Shown piece by piece: positions 27,737 through 54,834 of a DNA stretch of 64,000 nucleotides (position 1 is the first letter of the stretch; each line of letters starts with the position of its first letter). Source of the stretch: Puia sp. (GTDB lineage Bacteria > Bacteroidota > Bacteroidia > Chitinophagales > Chitinophagaceae); NCBI GenBank assembly GCA_031292515.1, contig JARLGZ010000278.1:17891-81890 (forward strand). Reading direction: 5' to 3'. A program made the position numbers and the translations under genes. The notes below the pieces were generated by a model. It saw only the letters and a program-made list of their open reading frames with translations. It did no database searches and had not been told where the DNA came from.

Positions 27737-27758
27737 GGGTTGTTTCGGGGTTGTTTCG
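27737..27758 (+). repeat. 11-nt perfect tandem repeat
   Basis: GGGTTGTTTCG GGGTTGTTTCG, located 60 nt upstream of the ATG at 27818. Confidence 0.85.
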
Positions 27759-27817
27759 TTTTTCGCACCAAGTCGAATTCAACCCGTATTTTTAATTCCC
27801 TGATTTTTAAACCCTGT

Positions 27818-30815: not shown

Positions 30816-33194
30816 ATGAGAAATTTTTTTTTGGGAGCTGTTTTTAGCAGGGATGTTTTTATAAGAAATATTTCTACAAGAAAGGCTCGTTTCAGAACTG
30901 CCCCTTGCGTGTTTTGTGTTTCCCTGATGCTCGTATCCTCGCTACCGGCATTTTCCCAGTTGGTGATCAAAGGCAGGGTGATCGATAAAAATACCCGTTT
31001 GCCCATCGAATATGCCGTTGTCAGCATCCCCGTAAAGGGGGCGGCCACTGCTCACAGGACGATCGATGCCATCACCGATCAACAGGGGAATTTCGAACTC
31101 CGGCTAAAGGATGCGGGAACGGGAGAGACGGGTGACTCTCTACGGGTCTCCTTTGTAGGATACCGTTCGACTGCGCTGGCCTGGATGGGATCCCGGGGAA
31201 GACAGGATCATTCCCGGCCGCTGCTTATCGAGATGGAAAGGGGGCCCGTGGACATGAAAGCCGTGACCATCGTACCCTTGTCCAATAATGCCTCTTTTCA
31301 TACGATCAGCGGAATAGATCTCAATCTGCGGCCGGTAAATTCGGCGCAGGACCTGATGCGGCTGGTGCCCGGTCTCTTCCTGATGCAGCACCAGGGCGGG
31401 GGAATTGCCGAGCATATCTTTCTGAGGGGCTTCGATGCGGATCACGGAACCGATGTCAGTGTCTCGGTGGACGACATGCCGTTGAATCTCGTTTCTCATG
31501 TGCATGGACAGGGGTTCTCCGATCTCCACTTTGTGATCCCGGAGCTGGTCAACAACTATGAATATGGGAAGGGTCCTTATTATACCGATCATGGGGATTT
31601 CACCACCGCCGGCTATGTGGCATTTCACACGGCGGATGTCCTGGATAGAAGCGAGGTAAAGGTCGAAGGCGGAGCCTTCAATACGGGACGTGTAATGGCG
31701 ATGGTGAACCTGCTGGGCAGCAAGGCCCGGCATCGGGATGAGAGCGCCTATATCGCCGGCGAAGCGGCCTACACAGACGGGCCTTATGATTACGCCCAGC
31801 ATTTCAACCGCGTCAACCTCTTTGGAAAATACAATGTCGCCCTTTCGCCAAAAGATAAACTGAAAATCACCCTCTCTACTTTTAGCAGCGATTGGCGTTC
31901 CTCCGGGGAAATTCCCGAACGTGCGGTATCCGAAGGACTGATCAGCCGCTGGGGATATATCGACAGCGCCCAGGGAGGATATACCAGCAGGACCACCGCG
32001 ATTGCGAGACTGACCTCTTCGTTGTCGGATCATCTGGCCCTGGAGAACCAGGTCTATTACGCCCGCTATTTCTTCAACCTGCATTATGACGAGACTTTCT
32101 TTGCCGACGATCCCGTCAACGGAGACCAGTTGCGCCAGCGCGAATCGAGGAATCTCTATGGCTATAACGGCAAGCTTACACATCATGCCTATTTTCAGGG
32201 AGACGGCGATCTGACTTCGACTTTTGGTCTGGGATGGCAGTACAACCATATCGACGGCAGTTCCCTCAGCCATACAAAGGACTATAATGACGTGTTGCAA
32301 TACATCCAATATGGAAACGTCCGGGAGACCGCGTTTAATGGTTATCTTGACGAAAGCTACCGGAAAGGCCGGTGGTTGTTCAATGCAGGGGTGAGACTGG
32401 ACTATCTCAATTTTGACTATCTGGACAAGCTAAATCCGCAACAACCTTCCCGGAGCAAGACCATAGCGAGCCCTAAACTGAACGTGGCCTATACAGCCGA
32501 CGAGAACGTGCAACTGTATATCAAAACGGGGAAAGGTTTCCATTCCAACGATGCCAAAGTAGTGGCCGCCAACCGGGGTCTGGACGTCCTGCCGGCAGCC
32601 TATGGCGCCGACCTGGGCATCAACTGGAAACCGGTGCCGCACCTGTTCATCAATACGGCGCTGTGGTATCTGTACCTGCAACAGGAATTCGTATACAACG
32701 GCGACGACGGTACTTTCAGCCCGGGCGACAAGACCCGGCGGGAGGGGATAGATGTCTCCGCGCGATACCAGTTCACCAACTGGCTATTCGCCAATTTCGA
32801 TATCAATATCTGCAGGGCGAGGGATATCCAGGCTGCTAAGGGAGAAAATTATCTGCCGCTCTCGGTACCGCTTTCCAGCACGGGAGGGCTCTATTTCAGG
32901 CTGCCTATGGGGTTGAATGGCGGGATCAGCTATAAATACCTGAAAGACCGGCCGGCAAATGAAGACAACTCGCTCGTTGCAAAGGGCAATTTCCTAACCG
33001 ACCTATCGGCCAACTACACAAAGAAGAAGTATGAGATCGGTCTGGAGATACAGAACCTGTTTAACACGAAATGGGAAGATGCCCAGTATGAAGTGGTGTC
33101 CCGGTTGAAAAACGAACCGCAGCCTGTGGACGATATCAGCTTTACGCCGGGTATGCCTTTTTTTGCAAAGCTGAAGCTGGCCTTATTCTTCTGA
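30816..33194 (+). CDS. TonB-dependent receptor with N-terminal carboxypeptidase-regulatory-like domain
   Basis: VIKGRVIDKNTRLPIEYAVVSI (CarboxypepD_reg), then plug-like LMRLVPGLFLMQHQGGG...IFLRGFD. The long beta-barrel region ends in the terminal aromatic LALFF. Confidence 0.9.
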   Translation: MRNFFLGAVFSRDVFIRNISTRKARFRTAPCVFCVSLMLVSSLPAFSQLVIKGRVIDKNTRLPIEYAVVSIPVKGAATAHRTIDAITDQQGNFELRLKDAGTGETGDSLRVSFVGYRSTALAWMGSRGRQDHSRPLLIEMERGPVDMKAVTIVPLSNNASFHTISGIDLNLRPVNSAQDLMRLVPGLFLMQHQGGGIAEHIFLRGFDADHGTDVSVSVDDMPLNLVSHVHGQGFSDLHFVIPELVNNYEYGKGPYYTDHGDFTTAGYVAFHTADVLDRSEVKVEGGAFNTGRVMAMVNLLGSKARHRDESAYIAGEAAYTDGPYDYAQHFNRVNLFGKYNVALSPKDKLKITLSTFSSDWRSSGEIPERAVSEGLISRWGYIDSAQGGYTSRTTAIARLTSSLSDHLALENQVYYARYFFNLHYDETFFADDPVNGDQLRQRESRNLYGYNGKLTHHAYFQGDGDLTSTFGLGWQYNHIDGSSLSHTKDYNDVLQYIQYGNVRETAFNGYLDESYRKGRWLFNAGVRLDYLNFDYLDKLNPQQPSRSKTIASPKLNVAYTADENVQLYIKTGKGFHSNDAKVVAANRGLDVLPAAYGADLGINWKPVPHLFINTALWYLYLQQEFVYNGDDGTFSPGDKTRREGIDVSARYQFTNWLFANFDINICRARDIQAAKGENYLPLSVPLSSTGGLYFRLPMGLNGGISYKYLKDRPANEDNSLVAKGNFLTDLSANYTKKKYEIGLEIQNLFNTKWEDAQYEVVSRLKNEPQPVDDISFTPGMPFFAKLKLALFF

Positions 33195-33233
33195 TGCCTG
33201 AAAATATATTCAATACAAAAAAACATTTCAACG

Positions 33234-33608
33234 ATGACACCGCCAATTTATTCCCGCATCGCGTTTCTGTTAGCAGGCTTCTTCCTGTTTACATTCCTAT
33301 CCTGTCAGAACGGTCCCGCCGCAACGCCGGCGGCGGCCAAAGACAGCATGCCCGGAGCTATCCCGCCAGCACCGGGCGCCCATGCGGGTGCCGTCTCCGG
33401 GGCGGGAGCCGCTAAGGAGACCAGACAGGATCTGAGGCAGCTGCACCTGAGTTTTGCGATCCCCAAGGATCCATCCTGCGGGATGCCGCTCACGGCTGGC
33501 CTGGAAGACACGCTTCGTTACAAAGGGAAGCTCTACGGGTTTTGCTCAAAAGAGTGCAAGGAGGCTTTTCTAAAAGACCCGGCAGCTGCTCTGGCGGGTG
33601 CAAAATAG
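33234..33608 (+). CDS. YHS/TRASH-like domain lipoprotein
   Basis: The lipobox is FLSC. C-terminal DPSCGMPL...YKGKLYGFCSKECKEAFLKDP resembles the YHS metal-binding domain. Confidence 0.65.
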   Translation: MTPPIYSRIAFLLAGFFLFTFLSCQNGPAATPAAAKDSMPGAIPPAPGAHAGAVSGAGAAKETRQDLRQLHLSFAIPKDPSCGMPLTAGLEDTLRYKGKLYGFCSKECKEAFLKDPAAALAGAK

Positions 33609-33622
33609 GAGGCGCGCTTTCC

Positions 33623-33652
33623 GGTGGACGGGACGTCCGCCTTTTGTTTTTT
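33623..33652 (+). terminator. Intrinsic terminator closing the TonB-receptor operon
   Basis: GGTGGACG-GGA-CGTCCGCC stem (one G-U pair) followed by TTTTGTTTTTTG, 15 nt after the stop at 33608. Confidence 0.7.
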
Positions 33653-33743: not shown

Positions 33744-33783
33744 AATAAGCGTCTGTAACCATGAATAAGCGTCTGTACCCATA
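33744..33783 (+). repeat. 20-nt-period tandem direct repeat (2 copies)
   Basis: AATAAGCGTCTGTAACCATG / AATAAGCGTCTGTACCCATA. The 19-nt core has one mismatch. It lies about 220 nt upstream of the hybrid kinase ATG. Confidence 0.85.
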
Positions 33784-34002: not shown

Positions 34003-36981
34003 ATGTATAGGACCGTACACCGAAAAATCAGTTGGCTTTTTCTGTTTTCGGTATTTTGTCTCTGCCTGGTCGGCAGGCTGATCTTGCTGAACAAACAGGA
34101 TGCGGAGAAGACGGGTTTCCGGATCAATCACACCTGGGAGATTATCGGCGCCCTCGACCAGATAAACGACCTCGTTTCCGAATCCCAGGTGGCCGCCTTT
34201 GGATATATCATCAGCGCCGACGGTGCCTGGAAATCACAGCTTCTCCAGACACGCAAAAATCTGCAACAGGAATTGGGAAGATTGCAGCAAATCACCGGAG
34301 ACAATGCCATTCAACAGAAGAATTGGGAATCGCTGATAAGCCTTCTCGAACAAAAACAACTCATCGAAGACAGCCTATCGGATTCGAAGAATCCTGTATT
34401 CGAAAATGACCGCCGGTTTTCATTTGGTCTGCGGATACAACACACTACGAGAGCTATAAAATCCGCCCTCTATGCGATGAAAGACGAGGAGGCCAATCTT
34501 CTTGCCGAGAGCCAAAGCTTGGGCAGGCTGGTACATACAAAGGCCATGTGGGCCCTGGTGACGGGAAGCCTGCTCACCTTTATGTTTGTCATCGTCATCC
34601 TCGTTCAGCTCAACAAGGACATCACCTTGCGTAAAAAAGCGGAGCAGGGACTTCACCAGAATGAATTGAAATACCGGAACCTGGTTGAAAATGCCGCCGC
34701 GGTCATTTATTCGACGGATAGCCAGGGGCATATCAATTTCTCGAGTGAAAAAGCCACCGAACTGACGGGGTATACCGTTGAAGAGTTGAAGGGCAGACAT
34801 TTCGCCTCGCTCGTCGATCCTTCTTTCCTGGACAGGGTAGTGGCCAACTATGCCAATCAGTTCAAGACGGGGACCGTCGAAACTTCCATGGTTTTTTTGA
34901 TCGTCACAAAAAACGGCGAAAAGAAATGGGTGGAGCAGTCCGCCGTCCTGTTGATGGAAAAAGACATCAGGCTGGGCTTCCAATGTTTCGTCAAGGATAT
35001 CTCAGAAAAGAAGCAAATGCAACTGGAACTCGAAGCCTCCGAATTCAAGCTGAAGGAGAACCAGCTCTGGCTGCAATCGATCCTCGACAACACGACCTCC
35101 CTGATCTTTATCAAAGACCTTTCGGGCAGGTATATTCTGATCAATAAGCGGTTCAAGGAAATTCTTGGTGTGGAAGAGGACCAGGTGATCCACAAAACGG
35201 ACTATGACCTGACCAGCCGGGAACTGGCCGATCATTACAAGATGCTCGATGAAGAGGTGATCCGGACGGGCAGATCCGTGGAAAGAGAAGAGCTGGTCCG
35301 GACGACGGGCGGCGACCGGAACCTGCTCCTGATAAAATTCCCCCTGCTGGACGGAAACAATAAGGTGTTTGGCGTCAGCGGTATCGCCACCGACATCACC
35401 GAGCGAGCGCATTATCAGCAGGAACTGATCAAAGCGACAAAAGAGGCCGAAGAGGCACGGCAGATGCAGGAACAGTTCCTGGCCAATATGAGCCACGAGA
35501 TCAGGACGCCCATGAACGGGATACAGGGAATGACCAATCTCCTGCTCGATACCTCTTTGAGCGAACAACAGGCCGAATTCGCCCATATCATCCGGCGATC
35601 CACCGGCAACCTGCTCGTCATTATCAATGATATACTGGACTTTTCAAAGATCAAGGCCGGCAAGCTGACCATCGAAAAGATAGATTTCAACCTCCAGGAC
35701 GTGCTCAGCAATGCGCAGGCCGTTTTTTCGCATCGCCTGTTAAAAAACAACCTGGATTTCCGGATCGAGCTGGATCCTTCCATACCGGATCTGCTGAGAG
35801 GCGACCCTCACCGGCTAAACCAGGTCCTCATAAACCTGATCGGCAATGCTATCAAATTTACGGAGCACGGATCCATACGGGTAGCCGTCAGCCGGCTCAC
35901 GCAAACCGACACCGGGGTGGTCCTCCGGTTTTCTGTATCGGATACCGGTATCGGCATCAGCGAGGAGGACCTGCCGCATATTTTTGAAAGCTTTTCGCAG
36001 GCGGGTCTCGATATCTCCCGGCGGTATGGCGGAACCGGTCTCGGCCTGGCCATCTGCAACCAGCTGCTGAAATTGCAGAAAGGTGACATCAGCGTTACCA
36101 GCGTCACGGGGCAGGGATCGTCTTTTAATTTCCGTATCCCTTACGAATACAGCAACCGGCAATCGGGTCAACCTGTCCTGGCAAAGGTTTATGACTATGC
36201 CGGCCTATTGGCCGGCAAGCGTTTCCTGGTAGCGGAGGATAATGAAGTCAATCAAAAGCTGATCGAATATGTGTTAAGAAAGGTGGGCGGCATTGTCCGG
36301 CTTGCGGGCAACGGCGAACAAGCTATCCGGGAATTGCAGCAGGATGCCGGTTATGATATCATCATCATGGACCTCCAGATGCCCGTTATGGATGGATATG
36401 CGGCTACCCGGCACATTCGGACGGTGCTGCGCCTGGAAACACCGATCATCGCCATGACGGCTACGGCGCTCAAAGGGGAACAACTGCGCTGCTTCGAAGC
36501 CGGGATGAACGAATACATGACCAAACCGTTTGAATTTACGGAGCTCTATAAATGCATCGGCAGCCTGCTGGGAAAAAAAGAGACTGCCTTATCTCCCGTC
36601 CCGGCGGCGATCCAGGAGAAAACGGCAGAGAAGCCATATGATCTCGCCTTACTCGAAGAAATGGACGATAAGGAATACCTGCTGGACATGCTGAACCTGT
36701 TCCTGACCAATATGCCCGTCCAATTGGAGGAACTGGTGCAGGCGTCTGGGCGGCAGGATTTTGACAAAGTATTCAGCGTTGCCCATAAATTAAAAGGGAC
36801 TGCCGGCATGCTTCGTACGCAGGCATTGATGGATCAGCTCGTCAGGATCGAAACCGGGTCCCGTGAGAGGATGGATACATCCGGGATGGTCCGGAGGGCT
36901 GCGGATCTTTTCACTCAGCTCGAAGGATTGCTGCAGGAAGAAAAATCAAGGGTCGAGGGCATGCTTGGAAAAGTCGTTTAA
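34003..36981 (+). CDS. Hybrid sensor histidine kinase: TM-CHASE3-TM, 2x PAS, HisKA, HATPase_c, REC, Hpt
   Basis: The CHASE3-like periplasmic segment (INHTWEIIGALDQINDLVSESQVAAFGYII...) is bracketed by two TM helices. H-box FLANMSHEIRTPMNGI; G-boxes DTGIGI and GGTGLGLAIC; receiver RFLVAEDNEVNQ...IIIMDLQMPVMDG...IIAMTA; Hpt AHKLKGTAGML. Confidence 0.95.
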   Translation: MYRTVHRKISWLFLFSVFCLCLVGRLILLNKQDAEKTGFRINHTWEIIGALDQINDLVSESQVAAFGYIISADGAWKSQLLQTRKNLQQELGRLQQITGDNAIQQKNWESLISLLEQKQLIEDSLSDSKNPVFENDRRFSFGLRIQHTTRAIKSALYAMKDEEANLLAESQSLGRLVHTKAMWALVTGSLLTFMFVIVILVQLNKDITLRKKAEQGLHQNELKYRNLVENAAAVIYSTDSQGHINFSSEKATELTGYTVEELKGRHFASLVDPSFLDRVVANYANQFKTGTVETSMVFLIVTKNGEKKWVEQSAVLLMEKDIRLGFQCFVKDISEKKQMQLELEASEFKLKENQLWLQSILDNTTSLIFIKDLSGRYILINKRFKEILGVEEDQVIHKTDYDLTSRELADHYKMLDEEVIRTGRSVEREELVRTTGGDRNLLLIKFPLLDGNNKVFGVSGIATDITERAHYQQELIKATKEAEEARQMQEQFLANMSHEIRTPMNGIQGMTNLLLDTSLSEQQAEFAHIIRRSTGNLLVIINDILDFSKIKAGKLTIEKIDFNLQDVLSNAQAVFSHRLLKNNLDFRIELDPSIPDLLRGDPHRLNQVLINLIGNAIKFTEHGSIRVAVSRLTQTDTGVVLRFSVSDTGIGISEEDLPHIFESFSQAGLDISRRYGGTGLGLAICNQLLKLQKGDISVTSVTGQGSSFNFRIPYEYSNRQSGQPVLAKVYDYAGLLAGKRFLVAEDNEVNQKLIEYVLRKVGGIVRLAGNGEQAIRELQQDAGYDIIIMDLQMPVMDGYAATRHIRTVLRLETPIIAMTATALKGEQLRCFEAGMNEYMTKPFEFTELYKCIGSLLGKKETALSPVPAAIQEKTAEKPYDLALLEEMDDKEYLLDMLNLFLTNMPVQLEELVQASGRQDFDKVFSVAHKLKGTAGMLRTQALMDQLVRIETGSRERMDTSGMVRRAADLFTQLEGLLQEEKSRVEGMLGKVV

Positions 36982-37016
36982 TCCCGGTTGATAAATCCCG
37001 TAAACTATATATTCTT

Positions 37017-37385
37017 ATGAAGATCCTGGTGGCAGAAGATGAAACGATCATGTTGAAGACAATTGACTTCCGTTTGAAGAAGGACGGTTATGAGGTCTTT
37101 TTGGCGGAAGACGGACAAAAGGCCCTTGAAAAAATCGAGGAGCTGTCCCCCGATCTGATCATCACCGATATCATGATGCCTTACGCGTCCGGCCTTGAGA
37201 TCGTCGGCTTTGTGAGGAAGAACAAGGAGAAGAGGATCCCCATCATCATCCTGTCCGCCATGGGGCAGGAAGATGTCGTGCTGGAAGCGTTCGGGCTGGG
37301 CGCCGATGACTATATCACCAAGCCTTTCAGCCCCAACGAACTGTCGGTAAGGGTAAAGCGACTGCTATCGGTAACCGGCCGGTGA
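37017..37385 (+). CDS. Stand-alone CheY-like response regulator receiver
   Basis: MKILVAEDE...DLIITDIMMPYASGLE...IIILSA...DDYITKPF; 122 aa with no output domain. Confidence 0.95.
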   Translation: MKILVAEDETIMLKTIDFRLKKDGYEVFLAEDGQKALEKIEELSPDLIITDIMMPYASGLEIVGFVRKNKEKRIPIIILSAMGQEDVVLEAFGLGADDYITKPFSPNELSVRVKRLLSVTGR

Positions 37386-38533
37386 GCACCGGAAAAAATC
37401 ATTTATTATCAATGCCATTTTTAGAAGTCCATCCTATCCAATACCTGAAAACCGGCTACCTGGTCGTTGCCATGTTTGTATTGCTCGGCGTGCTGTTTTC
37501 CGTTGTCCTGTTTATGCTGCTCTATCTGCTCGCCAGGAAGAAACGGGAGAAGCAAAAGGAACGATGGCACCAGCCGGTCGACCTGCTTATCCGGCGGGCT
37601 ATTTTTTTTGAAGAGAGCCCCGACAGGATGCAGATCCCGATAACACCCGGGGTGAGCAGATGGCTGAAAAGGTCTTATTTCCGGCAATTCCTCCTCGACG
37701 AAATGATTACAGCCAAAAAGAGTTTCTCCGGCAATGCCGCCGAAAACCTGGTGAGACTCTATAACCAGCTGCGTCTTGAAAGACTTTCGCTGACGAAGCT
37801 CAGCAGCCTGAAATGGCATATCCGGGCTCGATGCATCCAGGAACTGGCCGCGATGGACCAGAAAGACCAGGTAGGAAAGATTTACCGGCTGACCAATCAT
37901 CCAAACGAATTCATCCGGATGGAGGCGCAATCGGCGATCGTCCATTTCTATGGGTTCGAAGGGCTGCGCTTTCTCGATGTGGTATCCCAGCCCATCTCCG
38001 AATGGCAACAGATCCAGCTGCTGGCGCAACTTCCAAAGACTTTGGGCGCCGGGTTGAAAGGCATGGAAAGCTGGTTAAAATCTTCCAATTCATCTGTCAT
38101 CTCGTTTGCGTTAAAACTCGCCCGGATTCACCGGCGGTTCGAACTGCATGACGCGGTGGCCGGTTGCCTGGATCATCACAATCCCGCGGTGCGCATACAG
38201 GCCCTGAAGTGTTTGCAGGATATTTGTAATGAGACGACGGCCACGCTGATCATCGGCCGCTATGAAAAAAACGACCGTCTTTATCGCATCGCGGCCCTCG
38301 AAACCCTGCAATGTATGGGGCCGGAGAGCGCGGAACAGCAGATCGGTTTCCTGCAAAAAGAATTGCTGAATGAAGACGATACGATCAAGCTGGCAACCGC
38401 CCGCGTTCTGGCGACCGTAAGCGGGCGGGGGACGCAGTCACTGGACGATTTTGAAAAGGCAGGAGAATATCCCTGGAATGAGATCATCCGCCAGGCGAAA
38501 GGTGAACAGACAAAAAGCGGGAAAGCGGCATGA
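37382..38533 (+). CDS. Membrane-anchored HEAT-repeat protein
   Basis: A single TM helix (LVVAMFVLLGVLFSVVLFMLLYLLA) is followed by the RKKREKQKERW stop-transfer. Repeated helical units with HPNEFIRMEAQSAI, HHNPAVRIQALKCL and DDTIKLATARVLA are typical of HEAT/PBS-lyase repeats. The GTG start overlaps the RR stop (GTGA); an alternative ATG is at 37412. Confidence 0.7.
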   Translation: MSTGKNHLLSMPFLEVHPIQYLKTGYLVVAMFVLLGVLFSVVLFMLLYLLARKKREKQKERWHQPVDLLIRRAIFFEESPDRMQIPITPGVSRWLKRSYFRQFLLDEMITAKKSFSGNAAENLVRLYNQLRLERLSLTKLSSLKWHIRARCIQELAAMDQKDQVGKIYRLTNHPNEFIRMEAQSAIVHFYGFEGLRFLDVVSQPISEWQQIQLLAQLPKTLGAGLKGMESWLKSSNSSVISFALKLARIHRRFELHDAVAGCLDHHNPAVRIQALKCLQDICNETTATLIIGRYEKNDRLYRIAALETLQCMGPESAEQQIGFLQKELLNEDDTIKLATARVLATVSGRGTQSLDDFEKAGEYPWNEIIRQAKGEQTKSGKAA

Positions 38534-39957
38534 GCTGGCAGCAAATCATATTTGGCTTTTTCAGCTATGGCATCCTGCTATACTCCCTGGTCTTGCTGGC
38601 ATTCTATCTCTTCATTGCGCTTTTTGCCATCGGGGAGATCCGTCACTATCTTTGGGCAAACCGGTTTACCGACTACCGCGTACTGGCGGTTTCTTCCAAC
38701 GCGCCGGGAATGAGCATTCTGGCGCCGGCCTACAACGAGGCCGCCACCGTGGTAGAAAATGTAAGATCGCTTCTTTCCATTCATTATAACAACCTGGAGG
38801 TCATCATCATCAACGATGGCAGTAAAGACGAGTCGCTGCAGAAGCTGATCGCGGAATATGATCTGCATAAGGTCGACTTTTTCGTTCAGGAGCGGGTCGC
38901 CACAAAAAAAGTGAGAGGGGTGTATAAAAGCGCTAACCCCGTTTTCCACAAGCTCATCGTCGTGGACAAGGAGAATGGCGGGAAAGCCGATGCGCTGAAC
39001 GTGGGGATCAATATCGCAGGCAAACCCTATATCGTATGCATAGATGTGGATTGTATCCTCGAACAGGATGCGCTGCTGAAAATGGCCAAACCCTTCCTGG
39101 AAGAGAAGGGTTATCGGGTCATCGCTTCCGGTGGCGTCGTGCGGATCGCGAATTCCTGCCTGATCAGGAATGGCCGGCTCGAGAAAGTCAATCTCCCTGA
39201 TCGATTTCTGCCGCGTGTGCAGACGCTGGAATATATCCGGGCTTTCCTGCTGGGCCGGATGGCCTGGAGCAGGATGAACGGACTCCTGCTGATCTCGGGG
39301 GCTTTCGGCGCTTTCGAAAAAGAGATCGTCATAGCCTGCGGCGGCTACAACCATAAGACAGTTGGTGAAGACATGGAACTCGTGGTCCGTATGCGCAGGT
39401 ATATGGAGGAGCGGAAAGAACCTTATAAGGTGACGTATATTCCAGACCCGCTCTGCTGGACGGAAGCCCCCGTCTCTTATAAGATCCTCGGAAGGCAAAG
39501 GAACCGCTGGACAAGGGGCACGATCGAAACACTCCGATTTCATAAGATCATGTTCCTCAATCCGCGCTACCGGTTGCTGGGGATGCTGAGTTATCCTTAC
39601 TGGCTGTTCTTTGAGCTGTTGGCTCCGATCGTCGAATTTGCCGGTATCGCCGGTCTGCTTCTGTCGGCTTTATTTGGCTTTCTCAACTGGTCGGTGTTCT
39701 TTGCGTTGCTGGGTTTTATCGTATCCTTTGGGTTCCTGTATTCGATATTTGCCATCCTGATGGAAGTCCTCACCTATAATCAATACAAACAATCGAAGGA
39801 TATCCTGCGATTGGTGCTTACGGCGATACTCGAGCCGGTTCTTTTCCATCCTTTTGTAGTATGGTCCGCCATCCGGGGGAATATAGACCTGTTGAGAAAA
39901 AAGAATAGCTGGGGAGAGATGACCCGCCAGGGGTTTGTCGTCAAAAAGAATCCATAA
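38530..39957 (+). CDS. Processive membrane-embedded family-2 glycosyltransferase (PgaC/IcaA/BcsA/NodC-like polysaccharide synthase)
   Basis: There are N-terminal TM segments. The catalytic motifs are APAYNEA...IIINDGSKD, KADALN, IDVDC (DxD), VGEDMEL (TED-like) and QRNRWTRG (QxxRW). Three to four C-terminal TM helices follow. The ATG overlaps the upstream stop (ATGA). Confidence 0.9.
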   Translation: MSWQQIIFGFFSYGILLYSLVLLAFYLFIALFAIGEIRHYLWANRFTDYRVLAVSSNAPGMSILAPAYNEAATVVENVRSLLSIHYNNLEVIIINDGSKDESLQKLIAEYDLHKVDFFVQERVATKKVRGVYKSANPVFHKLIVVDKENGGKADALNVGINIAGKPYIVCIDVDCILEQDALLKMAKPFLEEKGYRVIASGGVVRIANSCLIRNGRLEKVNLPDRFLPRVQTLEYIRAFLLGRMAWSRMNGLLLISGAFGAFEKEIVIACGGYNHKTVGEDMELVVRMRRYMEERKEPYKVTYIPDPLCWTEAPVSYKILGRQRNRWTRGTIETLRFHKIMFLNPRYRLLGMLSYPYWLFFELLAPIVEFAGIAGLLLSALFGFLNWSVFFALLGFIVSFGFLYSIFAILMEVLTYNQYKQSKDILRLVLTAILEPVLFHPFVVWSAIRGNIDLLRKKNSWGEMTRQGFVVKKNP

Positions 39958-40010
39958 AAAGAATCCATAAAAGAATCCATGAGAGCGAATGCAAAGGGGT
40001 ACGTAAAAAC

Positions 40011-42095
40011 ATGAATCGAAAAGAACCAATATCAATAGATAAGAGTAGTATGAATGATTTGAAAATACATATCCGCCTCTTCGCTGCTTTGTCGCTGGCG
40101 TGGCTGGTGATGATCCTCCTGTTGAGCGGCTATGAATTCCTGTCGAATGGGAGCGCTCCGGGTATCTGGGAGCATGCGGGTTCCCTGTTCCTGTACAAGT
40201 TGTTTAACGAGGGGGTATACTGGCTGGACTCCTGCGGATGGCTGCTGGTTTTTTTCATCGCCTGCTATTTTCTGTCGGCCCGGCTTGCCCGCGGGCTGAC
40301 TATGGTGATCATCGTGCTATTGGTATTGATACAATTCATGCTCGCAAAATATTTTTCCACGGCGTTTGTTCCGCTTGGCGCCGATCTGTATGGATATTCC
40401 TGGAAGGATATAAAACAGACGGTGGGCGCTTCCGGCAGCATGAATGCCGGCACGATCGCCATTTTCGCGGTCCTGGCCGGGATACCGTTTTTATGGCTTC
40501 GCCTTGCCTGCCGGCGGATCCGGATCCCCCTGCTGCCTGCCTTGCTATTGCCCTTGCTATCGGTGATCGCGATGACGGCCGGTCCTTCTCTTCTCCGGCA
40601 TCACGGGGTTTTCCCGTCAGATTTTGCATCGAACCTGGTCCTGAGCAAGCCCGGCTATTTTTTCAGACAGTCCCGGGATCATTTTTTCCCCGAGGAGCAG
40701 GAGACCGATATCTATGCGGACTATTATGCCGGGGAGACAGGCGGCGACGAGGGGCTTGCCGCCAATTTCCTATACCCGGACGAAACCGGCTATCCCTTTT
40801 TTCATGGCGACAGTACGAAGGATGTGCTGTCTCCTTTTTTCGCTTTGCGGGGACAGGACGGCCCGGCCCGCCACACGGAAACTGTCACTCCTCCTCATAT
40901 CGTCATTATCCTGGTCGAAGGATTGGGTCGCGCCTTTACCAACGAAGGCGCCTATCTCGGAAATTTTACGCCTTTTCTGGATTCCCTGGCCGGCCACAGT
41001 TTGTACTGGAAGAATTTCCTGAGTGAAGGAGGGAGGACTTTTGCCGTGCTGCCATCCGTGCTGGGATCGCTGCCCTTTGGCAAGAACGGGTTCCTGGAGA
41101 TGGGAGAGGGGATGCCTTCGCAGCTCTCATTGCTAAACGTGCTTAAGAGAGACGGCTATCACAGCTCTTTCTATTATGGCGGCGACGCTCATTTCGACAA
41201 TATGGATCTTTTTTTGCAGAAGGGCGGGATCGATGAATTAAATGACGGCAGATCCTTTCCGGCCGGTTATACAAAACTTCCTGCCGAAAATGGGTTCTCC
41301 TGGGGATATAACGATAAGGAATTGTTTCGCCGCTATCTGGAGACGCGGGCAGCCGTCCCTGCACAGCCGCAACTCAGCGTGATCCTGACGGTTTCGACGC
41401 ATAGTCCTTTCAAGATCAACGAACCCGATAAATACAGCCGGCTTTTTGAGAACCGGATGAACCAATTGGGTTTTGACGAGGCACAGAAGAAGGAGCACCG
41501 GGTCTTCAAGGATCAATATGTGAGTATCTTGTATATGGATGACGCGCTGCGCAGTTTCTTTGCAGCCTATGCCCACCGGGCCGATTTTCAAAACACGGTC
41601 TTTCTTATCACCGGAGATCACCGGATGCCTGAAATTCCCATGAGGACGAAGATCGACCGCTACCATGTGCCCCTGATCTTCTATTCGCCGCTGTTGAAGA
41701 GAACGGCTGACTTCCTTTCGGTATCGACACATTTCGACATAGCGCCCTCTTTGCTGGCCTTCCTGTCTCATGGTTATGGTATCAGGAGACCCTCCGGGGC
41801 GCAATGGATGGGCGCCGGGCTCGACACGGCCAGGGGCTTCCGCAACATCCATGCTTACCCGATGATACAGACCAAGACCGACCAGGTGGATTTCATCATG
41901 GGTGAATATCATTTGAATGGGACGCAGGTATTCCGGCTGTCCCCGGATATGAATGAAGAAGCTGTCACGGATGAAGACGGAAAAGAGATTGCCGGCCGAC
42001 TCGATAACGCATTTGGCAGGTTCCGTCAACGGAACGGGCGTATTACGCCCCGGGGAAAAATGGTTCCCGATTCGCTGTTGAAGGCCTATCCCTGA
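40011..42095 (+). CDS. LtaS/BcsG/OpgB-like membrane transferase (multi-TM N-domain plus extracytoplasmic alkaline-phosphatase/sulfatase-fold domain)
   Basis: About 5 N-terminal TM helices are followed by IVIILVEGLG, TVSTHSPF and LITGDHRMPE blocks characteristic of the sulfatase/LTA-synthase superfamily. Confidence 0.8.
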   Translation: MNRKEPISIDKSSMNDLKIHIRLFAALSLAWLVMILLLSGYEFLSNGSAPGIWEHAGSLFLYKLFNEGVYWLDSCGWLLVFFIACYFLSARLARGLTMVIIVLLVLIQFMLAKYFSTAFVPLGADLYGYSWKDIKQTVGASGSMNAGTIAIFAVLAGIPFLWLRLACRRIRIPLLPALLLPLLSVIAMTAGPSLLRHHGVFPSDFASNLVLSKPGYFFRQSRDHFFPEEQETDIYADYYAGETGGDEGLAANFLYPDETGYPFFHGDSTKDVLSPFFALRGQDGPARHTETVTPPHIVIILVEGLGRAFTNEGAYLGNFTPFLDSLAGHSLYWKNFLSEGGRTFAVLPSVLGSLPFGKNGFLEMGEGMPSQLSLLNVLKRDGYHSSFYYGGDAHFDNMDLFLQKGGIDELNDGRSFPAGYTKLPAENGFSWGYNDKELFRRYLETRAAVPAQPQLSVILTVSTHSPFKINEPDKYSRLFENRMNQLGFDEAQKKEHRVFKDQYVSILYMDDALRSFFAAYAHRADFQNTVFLITGDHRMPEIPMRTKIDRYHVPLIFYSPLLKRTADFLSVSTHFDIAPSLLAFLSHGYGIRRPSGAQWMGAGLDTARGFRNIHAYPMIQTKTDQVDFIMGEYHLNGTQVFRLSPDMNEEAVTDEDGKEIAGRLDNAFGRFRQRNGRITPRGKMVPDSLLKAYP

Positions 42096-42152
42096 ATCCT
42101 GTTTCCGGGAGCATTTTTCCACTGATAAAGACCGGGCTGATCTCTCCGGAGG

Positions 42153-43409
42153 TCATTTCTTTGGAAGCGTTCGATAATAGTCGTAGAATATCCTGTTCAT
42201 CATCGGCCTGTAGAAATTCCAGAAGAAGCCGACTCGCTGGTTGGGGTCGCTGGTGTCATAAAACAGCCAGCTGAAAAAAGAGATGCCCTTGAAGGGAGAG
42301 CTGCCCAGGCCGATGGGGTTGTCGCAGAAGTCACCGGAAAAATAATAGAAGCGATAATCTTCGCCCTGGTGGAACAATACCGCCGGGAAGCGGAGCGGTA
42401 TCCGGTGCTTTTTCAATTCGGCGGCGCCCGCTGCGTTGGCATGGATGACAAACTCCGCGCCGATCTCATTACGGGCAGAACCGGCAGGAGCCGGGTAGCC
42501 TGCGGAATCCGGTTTGTCTTGTCCGGCCGGTGAAAGCGGGGCCCTCGAAACCGAATCATTCAGGACAGGATTGGGATCGGTGATATCGAACCAGAAGGGA
42601 TACTTTGTCTCTCTCGGAAGGTCGAGGGCTTCCCGCCCGGTTTCCGTGCTCTCAATGACGGGTACCGCGTCGAGCAAGCCGGTGGACGTTTCCAGGACTA
42701 CGATCTGGTCGTCGTTGCTGACGAACGCAATGCCGTCGTGGTGAAAGGGCCACGCGCCCTCATGTTGCAGCCGGTAGTTGCCGACGAGCCAATGCGGCAA
42801 TTCACTGTTGACGGATGTGTCGAGTGAGGAGAAATAACGCGCCGTCCAACCCGTCCAATGCATGCCGAACAGACGTTCGAACCGGGTTCGGACCGCCGTA
42901 GCCGTAGGCGAGCCGATCGTATTGAATTCCGCGATCATCAGCTTGTGCCGGGCTTTCATGTTTTCCAGCAGACCGATATCTTCGGGGCTCATTCCCCCAT
43001 AGACAAGACCGGAGCGCCCGGAGACGGCTGTTTTTTTATACCATTCGTTCTTGTAGATGCCGTAGGTATCCGTGAAATAGACCCCGTCGGCATCGCCAGC
43101 GAGGGTCTTTAGCCGTTCGGAAGAGAATCGTTCGAGGCCCTTTAGTTTGAAATGGTCATCCTGACCGGGGAAAAACCCAAAATAATCGTGGTCAGGCTCG
43201 TACAGATCCTTTTTTGTTTTTGTGAATTTCTCGTGCCGTAATATCCAGTCGAGCGAGATATGTTCCTGTGCAAGGGGCGTGAGGACGGTCTTATCTACGA
43301 TGGCGACCACCATTTTTTTCCGGGGTGTACACACCCAGGCCAGCCACATCCATAACGGCAGGAGGAGCAGTATCACGAGCAGGAAAAGAAACCCCCTGGT
43401 CTTTGTCAT
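42153..43409 (-). CDS. Membrane-anchored protein of unknown function (no family recognised)
   Basis: 418 aa with an N-terminal TM helix FLFLLVILLLLPLWMWLAWV. Its ATG directly abuts the stop of the upstream porin gene (TAAATG). No recognisable catalytic motif. Confidence 0.6.
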   Translation of the reverse strand: MTKTRGFLFLLVILLLLPLWMWLAWVCTPRKKMVVAIVDKTVLTPLAQEHISLDWILRHEKFTKTKKDLYEPDHDYFGFFPGQDDHFKLKGLERFSSERLKTLAGDADGVYFTDTYGIYKNEWYKKTAVSGRSGLVYGGMSPEDIGLLENMKARHKLMIAEFNTIGSPTATAVRTRFERLFGMHWTGWTARYFSSLDTSVNSELPHWLVGNYRLQHEGAWPFHHDGIAFVSNDDQIVVLETSTGLLDAVPVIESTETGREALDLPRETKYPFWFDITDPNPVLNDSVSRAPLSPAGQDKPDSAGYPAPAGSARNEIGAEFVIHANAAGAAELKKHRIPLRFPAVLFHQGEDYRFYYFSGDFCDNPIGLGSSPFKGISFFSWLFYDTSDPNQRVGFFWNFYRPMMNRIFYDYYRTLPKK

Positions 43410-44681
43410 TTAGAATCGCTTTTGATAGCCTATGCCGATATCCACCTGATTTCCCCGCGTTCCCGGCAGGTATTCCTGGTTGATCAGGGTAGCCGTGGCA
43501 AAGACGACATTCAGTTTTTTGATGGCGTGGTTGTAACCTACGGACAGCTTATTCGATTTTAACTCATAATGGGAATTCAGCTGGATATTGTTGCTCAGAT
43601 CGTCGGGTGAAATGCCGGTGCCCAGCGCCAGGCTCAGGTAGTCGTCGGCCCCTCCATAATAGTAGCGGGTGGTGACCGTATAGGACTGGGAAATATTGCT
43701 GTTGCCGGGGGTGAGATAAGTACGGGCATTAAACCAGAAGTTCCTGTAATATTTACCCGCCGACAGGGTATAGATCCAGGTGTCGCTGCTGAAATACAGG
43801 TAGCGGAAGCCGGCTTCGGCCTCGAAGCTTTTTGGCAGGTTGGCATAGAGAGAAAATCCCGCCCGGTATTTGGGGAAAATGCCGACGTCGTGCGAATAGC
43901 CGGCGTTTATATAGCTGTAGAAGGTCCTCGATATCTTCGGGTAGGCATCGCCCTCTACTTGTACTCCGTTGCTGTTAAACCGGTTGGCATAATTGATGCG
44001 GCCGATGACGGCGCCGATTTTTGTCTGTCGTTTATAGTCCACGCTGGCGAGATGCCAGGGGGCGTTGAACTCCTTATCAAAATAGACATAGTCGTAATAG
44101 ACCCCCAATTGATTTTTTGCGGCTTTGAAACGGGTTTGCAGAGCCAAAGCCCGCGCCTCCGCATTTTTTGGATCGGTCCTCAGCAAGGTATCGGTTATCG
44201 CCGCGGACTCTTTGAAGCGGCCCAGATCGTTCAGGATCTTTGCTTTTTTCAGCAGGAGATCCCGGGAAGCGGGATGATAGAACAATCCTTTGTCGCACCA
44301 GGACAGGGCCTGGTCTGAGTGGTCGTTCCAGTATTCGAGATCGGTCATGGCGGCGGCGGCATCTTCGTTGTCCGGATGCCTGTCAAGTACATAACCGAGG
44401 GCCTGCCGGGCGCTATCTAAGTGGTGATTCCAGGCATAAATCCTGCCCAGAAAGACCCTGATGTCCGAATAATCGGGGCTTTTTTCAAGGGCCTTCTTAC
44501 ACCGTTCGATTGCCGCGGGATAGTCGTGGTCGCTAAATGCCGAATGCCTGGCCTGTTGAAATAAGTCATCCGCGGAAAGGGAGACCTGTGCCCGGGTCTG
44601 TAAGGGAAGTGCATTTAGTATCGTAAAAGAGAGGATGACCGTAAGAGGCCCAAAAAGGAGATTTCCAATAGGGTTTTTCAT
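43410..44681 (-). CDS. TPR-repeat plus YaiO-like outer-membrane beta-barrel protein (PgaA/BcsC-like architecture)
   Basis: Signal peptide, then ~180 aa of TPR-like helices (AIERCKKALEKSPDYSDIRVFLGRIYAWNHHLDSA...). These are followed by ~230 aa with alternating-hydrophobic beta-strand periodicity, ending IGIGYQKRF with a terminal Phe. Confidence 0.65.
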   Translation of the reverse strand: MKNPIGNLLFGPLTVILSFTILNALPLQTRAQVSLSADDLFQQARHSAFSDHDYPAAIERCKKALEKSPDYSDIRVFLGRIYAWNHHLDSARQALGYVLDRHPDNEDAAAAMTDLEYWNDHSDQALSWCDKGLFYHPASRDLLLKKAKILNDLGRFKESAAITDTLLRTDPKNAEARALALQTRFKAAKNQLGVYYDYVYFDKEFNAPWHLASVDYKRQTKIGAVIGRINYANRFNSNGVQVEGDAYPKISRTFYSYINAGYSHDVGIFPKYRAGFSLYANLPKSFEAEAGFRYLYFSSDTWIYTLSAGKYYRNFWFNARTYLTPGNSNISQSYTVTTRYYYGGADDYLSLALGTGISPDDLSNNIQLNSHYELKSNKLSVGYNHAIKKLNVVFATATLINQEYLPGTRGNQVDIGIGYQKRF

Positions 44682-44977: not shown

Positions 44978-47053
44978 ATGGTTTTGAACACTACCATCTC
45001 CGGGGGGAAGACGGAGAACAAATTTCGCGTGATGGCCAGGGTGATTCCGGCCGGTATCCTGTTGTTTTTATCGGTTTTGACGAAGACGGAGGCCCAAACC
45101 GGCACTCCCGTCTATCCGCTCGATCCGTTGAGCGCAGACGAGATAAAAAAAACTGTCCGGATCCTGAAGGACAGCCATACGACTACAGGCGGTGACATTT
45201 TCAATGTTATCAATCTGAAAGAGCCTCCCAAAAAAGAGGTATTGGCCTATAAGCCCGGTGATCCTTTCCGGCGTGAGGCATTCGCCAGTTTTTACGATTA
45301 TGCGCAGAGCGGGGTCCGGGAAGCCGTGGTCGATCTGAACAAAGGAACGGTCATTTCCATCCGTACGATCCCAAATGTGATCGGGATGGGGCTGGGAGCA
45401 GATTCGGCGGCGGCGGAGAATATCGTACGCAGAGATCCGGCCTGGATAGCTGCTTTAAAGCGTCGGGGCATCTCGATCGATTCAGTGATCCACAAAAGTA
45501 TTTTTCCTACCGATCTGGGCATCGCCCCGATAGGTCACCGGGAACAACTGGTCATCCCCATCAGAAAAGGCAATAAGATCACCATCGAAGGGCTCCTGGC
45601 TTATACCGATTTCACAACCGGCAAAATACTCAGGATCGTAGATGAGCCGAATCGCTTTAGCGGCATGGCCCCATTGAACTATTTCAATGAGGATTCGATA
45701 AAGGATACGAGACAAGGCCCCAACCCGATCCTGATCACGCAGCCGGAGGGTTCTTCGGTCGGGATCAATGGGCATGAGATCAACTGGCAGAACTGGCATC
45801 TTCGCTATGGTATCGATAACCGCGAAGGCCTGATCATTTATAACGTAAACTATATTGAAGATGGCAGGGAACGCCGGGTGATGTATAAGGGGTCTATGCC
45901 GGAGATGGTAGTGCCCTACGGAGCCCCCTCCCTGCAACAGGCGGCCTATAACTTCTTCGATGCGGGCGAATACAGGCTGGGACAGGGGGTGGCCAGATCT
46001 CTGAGCCCCGGAGCGGATGCGCCTGAGAATGCCGCCTATATGCCGGCTATCCTGCACCGGGAGAGCGGCGCGCCTTATCAATTGGACAGGGCCGTCGCGA
46101 TTTATGAAGAATACGGGGGCACGTTATGGAGGCACGGGACCGTTTCCCGCCGGGCTACCAATCTCGCCATCAAATATTATACGACCATCGAGAACTATGA
46201 TTATGGGTTTACCTGGCGGTTTAAACAGGACGGGACAATCGATGTGGACATCGAACTAACCGGTATCGTGGAAATACAGGGGGTTCACCGGACCAATGCG
46301 ATGAATGCGCCGGATAAGGACGATCTCTCTTACAATGGCATGTCCTTCGGAACCCTGATACATCCGCATGTAGAAGCCATCAACCACCAGCACTTCTTCG
46401 TCTTCAGGCTGGATATGGATATTGATGGAGACCAGCACAACAGCGTCATGGAAATGAACGCCAAATTGGTGCCTCCCGGTAAAGACAATCCTTATAGCAA
46501 TGCCTTTGTCATGGAACACAACCTGTTCAAAACGGAGAAAGAGGCGCAAAGATCGGTCAACTACGAGACGGCCCGGAGCTGGCATTTTGTCAACAATGGA
46601 AAACACAACGCATTGGGCCAGCATGTGGGCTATATGCTGATGCCCGGGACGCAGGCGAAGCCTTTTATGCCGGAGGGTTCCGTCGTGAGGAAGAAAGCCG
46701 GCTTCCTCGATCACCAGTTATGGGTCACCCAATACCAGGAAGGGGAGGAGTACCCCGCCGGTATGTACCCTGCCAGCAATAAGGTCTATGACGGGCTGCC
46801 GCAATGGACCGCGGGGAACAGGGCTATCGATAACAACGATATCGTCGTATGGTATGTAGCGGGTATCACCCATATCGTACGACCCGAAGAGTGGCCGGTC
46901 ATGCCTTGTCATCATATGGGTTTCACGCTGATGCCCTTCGGGTTCTTCTCCGAAAATCCGACCATGGGCCTGCCCAACCCGGGGTTTTTGAAGGATCAGT
47001 TCCCGCCCATCAAGACCAGCCAGCCGGGAGATCCGTCGATCGAACACAATTAA
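44978..47053 (+). CDS. Copper-containing primary amine oxidase (topaquinone enzyme), secreted
   Basis: TPQ precursor motif TTIENYDYGF (N-Y-D/E-Y). Copper ligands in HPHVEAINHQHFF plus a distal H in GITHIVRPEEWP. The length and N2/N3-like N-terminus fit. An alternative start at 45032 (MARVIPAGILLFL) gives a cleaner signal peptide. Confidence 0.9.
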   Translation: MVLNTTISGGKTENKFRVMARVIPAGILLFLSVLTKTEAQTGTPVYPLDPLSADEIKKTVRILKDSHTTTGGDIFNVINLKEPPKKEVLAYKPGDPFRREAFASFYDYAQSGVREAVVDLNKGTVISIRTIPNVIGMGLGADSAAAENIVRRDPAWIAALKRRGISIDSVIHKSIFPTDLGIAPIGHREQLVIPIRKGNKITIEGLLAYTDFTTGKILRIVDEPNRFSGMAPLNYFNEDSIKDTRQGPNPILITQPEGSSVGINGHEINWQNWHLRYGIDNREGLIIYNVNYIEDGRERRVMYKGSMPEMVVPYGAPSLQQAAYNFFDAGEYRLGQGVARSLSPGADAPENAAYMPAILHRESGAPYQLDRAVAIYEEYGGTLWRHGTVSRRATNLAIKYYTTIENYDYGFTWRFKQDGTIDVDIELTGIVEIQGVHRTNAMNAPDKDDLSYNGMSFGTLIHPHVEAINHQHFFVFRLDMDIDGDQHNSVMEMNAKLVPPGKDNPYSNAFVMEHNLFKTEKEAQRSVNYETARSWHFVNNGKHNALGQHVGYMLMPGTQAKPFMPEGSVVRKKAGFLDHQLWVTQYQEGEEYPAGMYPASNKVYDGLPQWTAGNRAIDNNDIVVWYVAGITHIVRPEEWPVMPCHHMGFTLMPFGFFSENPTMGLPNPGFLKDQFPPIKTSQPGDPSIEHN

Positions 47054-54800: not shown

Positions 54801-54834
54801 TATACGTTTTTTTTGCCAGCATCTCCGGTGTTCG

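Follow-up and report, generated by a model that had tools for sequence, protein, structure and literature searches.

A probable receiver-linked, synthase-dependent module for glycan biosynthesis and export across Bacteroidota

In the Pga, Bcs, Pel, Alg and Nfr systems, the characteristic exit is a protein that combines tetratricopeptide repeats (TPR) with a beta-barrel. Signalling by cyclic di-GMP (c-di-GMP) is sparse in Bacteroidota, and to our knowledge the control of matrix production in this phylum is largely unknown. The known synthase systems depend on c-di-GMP, and the synthase PgaC requires its partner PgaD (PMC8461298). Here, we analyzed a stretch of 64,000 nucleotides (nt) from Puia sp. 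(assembly GCA_031292515.1, contig JARLGZ010000278.1, positions 17,891-81,890 of the forward strand; hereafter the window), in which five co-directional genes at 34003-42095 (+) meet a two-gene operon converging from the (-) strand, as read from the map of open reading frames (ORFs). The five genes encode a hybrid histidine kinase, a stand-alone receiver, a HEAT-repeat protein, a GT2 glycosyltransferase and an LtaS/OpgB-like transferase, and the operon encodes a TPR-YaiO outer-membrane protein and a membrane-anchored protein of 418 amino acids (aa). Judged from its gene content, the locus is probably a receiver-linked, synthase-dependent module for glycan biosynthesis and export that is Bacteroidota-wide and apparently undescribed. 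By analogy, its overall logic of synthase, modifier and TPR plus barrel looks familiar from Pga, Bcs and Nfr, and what we rate as new is its regulatory front end, together with the porin family, accessory protein and fusion of synthase and transferase. The HEAT, GT2, LtaS-like and 418-aa proteins all stay below the cutoffs of the curated NCBIfam models, and no description of the module or of a receiver/HEAT-controlled synthase was found in the full-text literature searched, which leaves most subscription journals outside.

One genome per GTDB species was scanned with the window GT2, which yielded 80 related loci, and the seven window proteins and their sub-domains were mapped onto these loci by tblastn and BLASTP. 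Enough sequence was available upstream in 75 loci and downstream in 64; the junction of the HEAT and GT2 genes was scored in 76, and the kinase was counted in the 30 loci in which at least ~9 kb is covered to either side of the GT2 ORF. The loci belong to five or more families: Sphingobacteriaceae (Pedobacter, Mucilaginibacter, Daejeonella, Solitalea, Sphingobacterium), Chitinophagaceae (Ferruginibacter, Niabella, Hanamia, Sediminibacterium, Taibaiella), Hymenobacteraceae (Pontibacter, Sabulibacter), Weeksellaceae (Chryseobacterium, Kaistella) and Cyclobacteriaceae. The run of receiver, HEAT and GT2 genes is contiguous in essentially all 80 loci, among which the GT2 family is 57-91% identical. 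The receiver is present in 74 of the 75 informative loci and the HEAT protein in 72 of 75 by tblastn, with BLASTP detecting it in the remaining three. Downstream, the TPR-YaiO gene was found in 58 of 64 loci, the LtaS-like gene in 49 and the 418-aa gene in 24; the last was seen only behind the YaiO gene and only in loci that also have the LtaS-like gene. The flanks are unrelated from locus to locus, with, for example, genes for a release factor, Fic, EngA, LacI or DUF4838 proteins. The receiver, HEAT and GT2 genes thus form an invariant triplet that is genetically tied to a TPR plus YaiO barrel, often to an LtaS-like transferase, and usually to an adjacent histidine kinase or phosphorelay.

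The initial annotation of the window, made from the sequence, had described seven ORFs at 34003-44681 as a complete machine for secreting a polymer. All seven were found there, with domains and motifs as claimed, and the models that it proposed as a check (Glyco_tranf_2_3, CHASE3, HEAT_2, Sulfatase and the YaiO TIGRFAM) were all matched. Its expectation that the genes co-occur beyond this genome is also borne out by the recurrence of the set in 80 loci with unrelated flanks. Of the machine so described, the receiver, HEAT and GT2 genes are the invariant core, the LtaS-like and 418-aa genes are optional, and the kinase is swappable. In the window, the two units lie on opposite strands with weak terminator-like hairpins between them, as would be expected if two convergent and functionally unrelated operons had become neighbors by coincidence. 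However, Niabella and Desertivirga carry the receiver, HEAT, GT2, LtaS-like, YaiO and 418-aa genes on one strand, so the convergent arrangement is one layout of the same unit, and the YaiO gene lies on the strand of the GT2 operon in Cyclobacteriaceae as well. Because the partners recur in 80 loci with unrelated flanks, share one strand in several genera and are joined in gene fusions, chance adjacency is refuted: the arrangement is far beyond chance, and we give coincidence a negligible probability. The boundaries of the module were set at 34003-44681, because the genes beyond it are unrelated from locus to locus and the neighbors in the window are absent from the 80 loci.

The GT2 gene (38530-39957, +) encodes a PgaC/IcaA-related synthase of 475 aa with Pfam matches to Glyco_tranf_2_3 and Chitin_synth_2, and CelA is among its further matches. 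The protein carries the motifs DGS96, DVD172, QTLEY231, GED279 and QRNRW323 and a C-terminal WGEMTR461 (W-x4-R), and its hydrophobic segments lie at both ends (residues 5-39 and 358-446). The D, DxD, ED and QxxRW motifs and the transmembrane (TM) helices of a synthase are therefore all present, and the channel is predicted. The nearest relative was found in a metagenome-assembled genome (MAG) of Chitinophagaceae from palsa soil. When the GT2 profile was compared by hhalign with E. coli proteins, PgaC ranked first (probability 99.7%, E 4e-27, 31% identity over 268 columns), followed by YaiP (3.5e-14), BcsA (2e-6), OpgH (5e-3) and NfrB (3e-2). Two NCBIfam models match below their thresholds, namely PgaC_IcaA (TIGR03937; 131 bits, E 5.5e-38, cutoff 422) and an XrtG-associated glycosyltransferase (134 bits, cutoff 364). 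PgaC ends in ...KKQRARWVSPDRG and ...RKKNSWGEMTRQG is invariant in the GT2 family, so that the two have a KK...W-x4-R-G tail in common. The W...(T)R tail recalls the WGTR and FxVTxK motifs of hyaluronan, chitin and cellulose synthases, which we take to be "gating" motifs, and is a lead rather than a test.

Searches of PDB sequences with the GT2, as a single sequence or as a profile, returned mostly soluble GT-A domains, and BcsA only at E 0.003. An AlphaFold2 (AF2) model was built on a 44-sequence alignment of 72-91% identity. Among the Foldseek matches of this weak model, only the hyaluronan synthase of a Chlorella virus (TM-score ~0.5), followed by Chs1 and BcsA, aligns over the full length. 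PcManGT and GtrB are also among the top matches, and enzymes of the LtaS/EptA fold also modify lipid A. A non-processive GT2 (of the GtrB, DPM or ArnC type) would accordingly serve lipid-linked sugar or protein glycosylation in an envelope-modification locus, e.g., for lipid A or lipopolysaccharide. However, PcManGT and GtrB cover only the GT-A half of the GT2, with query TM-scores of 0.25-0.33 against ~0.5 for hyaluronan synthase. A non-processive enzyme, which we consider very improbable, is also contradicted by the QRNRW, GED and QxxEY motifs, by a C-terminal set of three to four TM helices, by the relationship to PgaC and by the matches to Chitin_synth_2 and CelA. Because PgaC ranks first and the full-length fold matches are processive synthases, the GT2 is placed, by sequence and predicted fold, as a processive membrane-embedded synthase of the PgaC branch and not as a PgaC equivalog. 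The processive synthase proposed at the outset is in keeping with both the profile match to PgaC and hyaluronan synthase as the best full-length fold.

As to the sugar, there are no sugar-nucleotide or deacetylase genes in the locus, and the lack of sugar-nucleotide genes points to a housekeeping donor. Given the motifs of the PgaC and chitin-synthase type, UDP-N-acetylglucosamine (UDP-GlcNAc) is our best guess for the donor, held with modest confidence.

The Pga system is the closest described one in several respects. Among the E. coli proteins, PgaC stands closest to the GT2, the synthase is encoded beside a small-to-medium membrane partner in both systems (PgaD there, the HEAT protein here), and both have a TPR plus beta-barrel outer-membrane protein. 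On the other hand, neither the locus nor the related loci encode a PgaD/IcaD homolog, a PgaB/IcaB deacetylase/hydrolase with a CE4 domain or a PgaA porin, and the barrel is YaiO-type rather than PgaA (TIGR03939, 36 bits vs. 367; BLASTP not significant). The GT2 falls short of the PgaC equivalog model, as scored above, and has inserts at approximately residues 105-140 and 205-225 relative to PgaC. The LtaS-like transferase is a further difference, as are receiver and relay genes in place of the c-di-GMP of Pga (PMC8461298). The Bcs/BcsG system for phosphoethanolamine-cellulose in E. coli and Salmonella shares the logic of a GT2 coupled to a multi-TM decorator of the alkaline-phosphatase fold and a TPR/barrel exit; PDB entry 9fmv is titled as a BcsA-BcsG3 complex, and here the coupling reaches gene fusion. 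It differs in that the GT2 scores 32 bits vs. 699 with the BcsA model TIGR03030 and aligns with BcsA over the catalytic core only, that there is no PilZ domain and no BcsB, and that the transferase is not BcsG-like. NfrA-NfrB (poly-ManNAc, the phage N4 receptor) shows the same minimal design of synthase, TPR/barrel and cytoplasmic regulatory input, whereas NfrB matches the GT2 with a profile-level probability of only 1.7% and takes its input through a c-di-GMP-binding domain. Membership of the Nfr, Bcs and Pga systems was rejected on these family-model scores and profile comparisons. An Opg-like system, which pairs an OpgH-type GT2 with OpgG/OpgD, was rejected on the distance from OpgH (hhalign probability 7.6%), and no OpgG/OpgD-like gene is present.

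Another comparison is offered by the uncharacterized E. coli operon yaiS-yaiP-yaiX(IS2)-yaiO, in which a YaiO barrel is encoded together with a membrane GT2. The initial annotation had named this neighborhood as a parallel. The neighborhood is real and the link is distant: YaiP is the second-closest E. coli GT2 to the window GT2 family, yet its relationship is remote. The only named member of the YaiO family, E. coli YaiO, is without a TPR domain and BLASTP against the window barrel detects nothing, and the yai operon has a deacetylase and an acyltransferase, with no receiver, HEAT or LtaS-like genes. The operon nevertheless supports a recurrent partnership of YaiO barrel and GT2. In E. coli K-12, YaiP (L081 8740-9936) has PAYNE, DGS, DAD and ED motifs, RWRRW replacing QxxRW, and C-terminal TM helices, and the acyltransferase gene yaiX, between yaiP and yaiO, is split by IS2.

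Upstream of the GT2 gene lie the other two members of the triplet. The receiver gene (37017-37385, +) encodes an OmpR/PhoB-type REC domain of 122 aa without an output domain (Response_reg, 5e-29, as the only Pfam match), and its phospho-acceptor set is intact (D8, D51, S80, Y99, K102). The HEAT gene (37382-38533, +) encodes a predicted single-pass inner-membrane protein of 383 aa with HEAT_2 (6e-12) and further HEAT matches. The receiver stop codon overlaps the possible GTG start (37382) of the HEAT gene; this start is ambiguous, as the gene caller picks ATG 37412 (27 nt downstream; 373 aa) over GTG 37382. The HEAT stop in turn overlaps the GT2 start as ATGA. This second overlap recurs in 65 of 76 loci at any length, and measures 4 or 7 nt in 58 of them. 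By Kyte-Doolittle hydropathy and charge counts, the HEAT protein has one TM helix at approximately residues 26-50. Because 7 of the 15 residues after this helix are Lys or Arg, the HEAT solenoid is predicted to be cytoplasmic (N-out/C-in), on the same side as the receiver. An invariant patch runs from W145 to L246 (residues 145-246). The family is large: an exhaustive profile search gathered 1232 cluster representatives with E no higher than 1e-30, a count that takes in some giant HEAT-repeat proteins.

Variants of the HEAT adaptor of 545-631 aa were also observed, in which an extra N-terminal region of 200-280 aa, presumably periplasmic, precedes the TM helix: P0440 (Segetibacter aerophilus), P0452 and P0505 (Ferruginibacter), P0388, P0403, P0436, P0462 and P0468. 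The few long representatives with a named source come from Chitinophagaceae. A weak LysM match was found in two of the seven scanned (P0452, P0462), and the UniRef name of P0440 is "LysM domain-containing." These long adaptors may sense or bind something periplasmic as well. Their extra N-terminal regions contain no REC domain.

Single-domain receivers are often phosphate sinks or connectors. If the receiver acted here only as a sink or relay branch, the output of the pathway would be transcriptional or lie elsewhere, with the HEAT protein serving only as a structural co-subunit or chaperone of the synthase. Such an indirect role is in line with the lack of any REC-HEAT or REC-GT2 fusion in the related loci and with two loci (L047, L077) in which the receiver gene sits at the opposite end of the cluster, adjoining the kinase or YaiO gene. 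L077, from one MAG, also has a HEAT-like N-terminus fused to the LtaS-like protein, detected by BLASTP only. Against it, no partner of HEAT-GT2 is as constant as the receiver, while the kinase is freely swapped. Moreover, the receiver is 42-74% identical across families, its gene lies mostly from a few to ~20 nt upstream of the HEAT gene, and no DNA-binding regulator is conserved in the module among the related loci. We regard an indirect receiver as unlikely, with an appreciable residual chance, and favor direct action of the receiver on the HEAT-GT2 unit.

The kinase gene (34003-36981, +) encodes 992 aa with CHASE3, two PAS, HisKA, HATPase_c, Response_reg and Hpt domains in Pfam, and TM segments at 8-31 and 180-209 flank the CHASE3 periplasmic sensor. 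A CHASE3-PAS-HK-REC-Hpt kinase (HK, histidine kinase) adjoins the module in the window and in Pontibacter, a GAF-PAS-HK-REC-REC-Hpt kinase is found in Chryseobacterium and Sphingobacterium, and in Ferruginibacter the order is a divergent HK-REC-REC gene, a stand-alone Hpt gene of 124 aa and then the receiver. In Pedobacter, an orthodox kinase of 402 aa adjoins the YaiO gene. Relays that contain Hpt thus recur in three gene arrangements, which supports a His-Asp-His-Asp route ending on the small receiver. All parts of a multi-step phosphorelay are present in the window (a HisKA/HATPase core, an internal REC, Hpt and an intact terminal receiver), and phosphotransfer is predicted. The phosphorelay first put forward for this locus is therefore reinforced as a route and weakened as a fixture, with the kinase a swappable accessory: what is conserved is the output-less receiver linked to HEAT-GT2, and the sensors are swapped.

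None of the seven locus proteins contains PilZ, GGDEF or EAL domains or motifs by Pfam and motif scan, as had been expected, and no GGDEF motif occurs in window ORFs of at least 150 aa. By such sequence signatures, c-di-GMP activation through PilZ, a degenerate GGDEF or I-site or MshEN was not detected. No exact match to the Bacteroidetes promoter consensus TAnnTTTG was found upstream of the operons. A 20-bp unit, AATAAGCGTCTGTAACCATG, is present in two tandem copies at 33744-33782, ~220 bp upstream of the kinase start; its 13-nt core has no further match in the window, against a chance expectation of 0.05, and the repeat may be a candidate regulator-binding site.

The LtaS-like gene (40011-42095, +) encodes 694 aa, or 681 aa if translation starts at ~40050, as the start is ambiguous. 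TM segments lie within residues 17-195 of the protein, and a Sulfatase domain covers residues 295-584 (Pfam, 1e-30). Its Glu, Thr and Asp-His align with E255, T300 (the nucleophile) and D475-H476 of S. aureus LtaS, and its best NCBIfam matches are LtaS (45.7 bits vs. cutoff 970) and phosphoglycerol transferase I (38.5 vs. 572). The protein thus has the LtaS/OpgB architecture of a multi-TM N-terminus and an extracytoplasmic alkaline-phosphatase/sulfatase fold together with the catalytic residues, at a similarity below equivalog level. The gene context differs from that of LtaS and OpgB, being a GT2 synthase and not glycolipid or osmoregulated periplasmic glucan (OPG) genes. The closest solved structure is the uncharacterized Vibrio protein VP1736. 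The protein had been called LtaS/BcsG-like; the NCBIfam matches and catalytic residues uphold the first half of that name, and no similarity to BcsG is detectable. By these resemblances, it probably transfers a phospho-alcohol head group at the outer face of the inner membrane, phosphoglycerol being more likely than phosphoethanolamine.

In 25 loci, the GT2 and the LtaS-like protein are fused in a single ORF of ~1140-1210 aa, with both domains confirmed by Pfam in Chryseobacterium hispalense. The fusions were observed in L072 (9998-13432) and in L002, L008, L014, L016-18, L023, L025, L029, L034, L041, L045, L047, L048, L061 and L064-L076. In the window, a 13-bp tandem repeat, AAAAAGAATCCAT, occurs in three copies at 39943-39980 and runs across the GT2 stop codon and the spacer between the GT2 and LtaS-like genes; the junction that carries this repeat is the exact point of fusion in the 25 other loci. 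In Cyclobacteriaceae (L078-L080; e.g., L078 11388-13763), the LtaS-like protein has a C-terminal TPR and is followed by a TPR-YaiO gene on the same strand, which suggests that the transferase contacts the periplasmic scaffold directly.

The YaiO gene (43410-44681, -) and the 418-aa gene (42153-43409, -) abut with zero spacer. The YaiO protein (423 aa) scores well above the curated cutoffs of PF19413 (259 bits, cutoff 23.9; 2e-77) and TIGR04390 (213 bits, cutoff 32; 7e-63). It has a signal-peptide-like N-terminus, a TPR domain (TPR_19, 7e-18) and a C-terminal Phe, and its barrel segment (residues 189-423) shows by eye roughly 14-16 amphipathic strands up to the Phe end. These YaiO-family scores agree with the original call of an outer-membrane protein. 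TPR scaffold and outer-membrane barrel are combined in one protein here, its pore function is predicted, and the strand pattern is compatible with a glycan pore. In the full-text literature searched, YaiO appears in E. coli papers on PCR (polymerase chain reaction) markers and in lists of outer-membrane mutants, with no function given. In Daejeonella sp. (L006 16118-17419), a zinc-dependent phospholipase C gene stands at the usual place of the YaiO gene; the LtaS-like gene is missing from this locus too, and a kinase of the GAF-PAS-HK-REC-REC-Hpt type is encoded on the downstream side of its GT2.

The 418-aa protein has no match in Pfam, NCBIfam or PDB sequence searches, in accord with the earlier impression of a protein without a recognizable family, and it has ~1075 homologs, all source-named ones of which are called "hypothetical." Its AF2 model is an alpha/beta domain (predicted local distance difference test, pLDDT, 80; predicted TM-score, pTM, 0.82). 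The best Foldseek match is ThuA-like (E 2e-4, TM 0.32), with proteins like class-I glutamine amidotransferases (GATase1) also near, so that at this low similarity the model resembles a distant ThuA/GATase1-like alpha/beta fold. Three to four Lys or Arg precede the N-terminal hydrophobic stretch of the homologs, and because this resembles a signal anchor, the domain is tentatively placed in the periplasm. The protein is an accessory component and may be a scaffold or a modifying enzyme. The window copy contains a Pro/Ala/Ser-rich insertion of ~28 residues (residues 284-311; window 42477-42560) that is absent from 42 aligned homologs and has a predicted pLDDT <50.

The pairing of a GT2 with an LtaS/OpgB-like enzyme mirrors OpgH with OpgB, and the transferase scores against the phosphoglycerol transferase I and LtaS models and keeps the catalytic residues of LtaS. 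The product could accordingly be a phosphoglycerol-substituted glycan retained in the envelope (OPG- or lipoteichoic-acid-like), for which YaiO-TPR would be an anchor or sensor and not a pore; the lack of a recorded YaiO function, and the two loci with no YaiO gene nearby, fit this as well. However, the GT2 is far from OpgH and close to PgaC, no OpgG/OpgD-like gene accompanies it, and about a quarter of the loci are without the transferase. Most loci also encode the TPR plus barrel, in some cases within the operon itself, and one lineage has a TPR joined to its LtaS-like protein. A retained glycan is distinctly unlikely in our judgment, and we prefer an exported polymer.

Under the preferred reading, in which the receiver switches on an exporting synthase, phosphate on the His of the CHASE3/PAS kinase would move by way of the REC Asp and the Hpt His to Asp51 of the small receiver. 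The phospho-receiver would dock on the cytoplasmic HEAT solenoid or on the HEAT-GT2 interface and thereby stabilize or activate the synthase complex, the HEAT protein taking the role that PgaD and c-di-GMP play for PgaC (PMC8461298). The GT2 would polymerize a common UDP-sugar, most likely UDP-GlcNAc, and move the growing chain across the membrane in a TM channel of its own. On the periplasmic face, the chain would receive a phospho-alcohol from the LtaS-like enzyme, which is either bound to the synthase or part of the same polypeptide; phosphoglycerol from phosphatidylglycerol is the best guess for this group. The TPR domain would then guide the chain to the YaiO barrel, assisted by the periplasmic 418-aa protein where it is present. 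The entire chain, from phospho-receiver through HEAT and synthase activation to a phosphoglycerol-GlcNAc polymer and a YaiO pore, is a tentative proposal that we would not expect to hold in every link. It is likewise possible, and short of an even chance, that the module represents a c-di-GMP-independent class of PgaC-like synthase, tied and often fused to an LtaS-type transferase, with a receiver/HEAT allosteric switch, a glycerophosphate-bearing, teichoic-acid-like anionic GlcNAc polymer, a new YaiO-type TPR porin and, in the ThuA-fold 418-aa protein, a new processing factor of the periplasm. The identity of the polymer, its export and its direct activation by the phospho-receiver are all inferred.

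Several points weigh against this chain of events. The AF2 model of the GT2 is poor (pLDDT 59.6) and the translocation channel is predicted, and the sugar is guessed from motif resemblance alone. A REC-HEAT fusion was sought among the 150 best representatives of the HEAT family and none was found, so the contact between receiver and HEAT protein is deduced from gene adjacency only. The type of kinase is not constant, and there is none within ~10 kb in 7 of 30 loci. The GGDEF scan covers the ORFs of the window, and diguanylate cyclases may be encoded elsewhere in the genome; c-di-GMP binding of the PgaC/PgaD kind, which leaves no sequence signature, may also occur. L006 and L028 have long flanks and no YaiO gene nearby. 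Finally, the polymer is predicted from the genes of the system.

Other genes in the window were observed around the module. A TonB-dependent receptor and a small YHS-domain (metal-binding) protein are encoded upstream at 30816-33608, with a strong terminator-like hairpin at 33623-33641; both genes were rejected as parts of the module, since none of the 80 loci has them. The gene for a copper-containing primary-amine oxidase (44978-47053; NF008559, 654 bits) is divergent from the YaiO gene. It was considered as a GlxA-like partner and rejected, because it too is missing from all 80 related loci and therefore lies outside the system. At 18703-23124 (-) and 27695-29803 (+), the window encodes two probable cargo proteins of type IX secretion, each with a CHU_C signal domain at the C-terminus; one of them has 1473 aa and approximately ten PKD repeats. 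A PSCyt1/PSCyt2/PSD1 protein, with planctomycete-type cytochrome domains, and a DUF1501 protein are encoded at 53349-57618 (-), a gene pair that is better known from Planctomycetota and Verrucomicrobiota.

If the proposed module is real, it would offer a testable answer to how matrix production is controlled in Bacteroidota, with culturable hosts in Pedobacter, Chryseobacterium, Sphingobacterium, Pontibacter and Niabella, and the GT2-LtaS fusions would be suited to structural work on co-synthetic polymer modification. The YaiO outer-membrane family would gain its first function, which would extend indirectly to E. coli yaiO/yaiP, and two nameless protein families, the HEAT adaptor and the 418-aa protein, would receive names. 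Soil aggregation, biofilms and host colonization are settings in which the product, possibly a new phospho-decorated polysaccharide, would matter.

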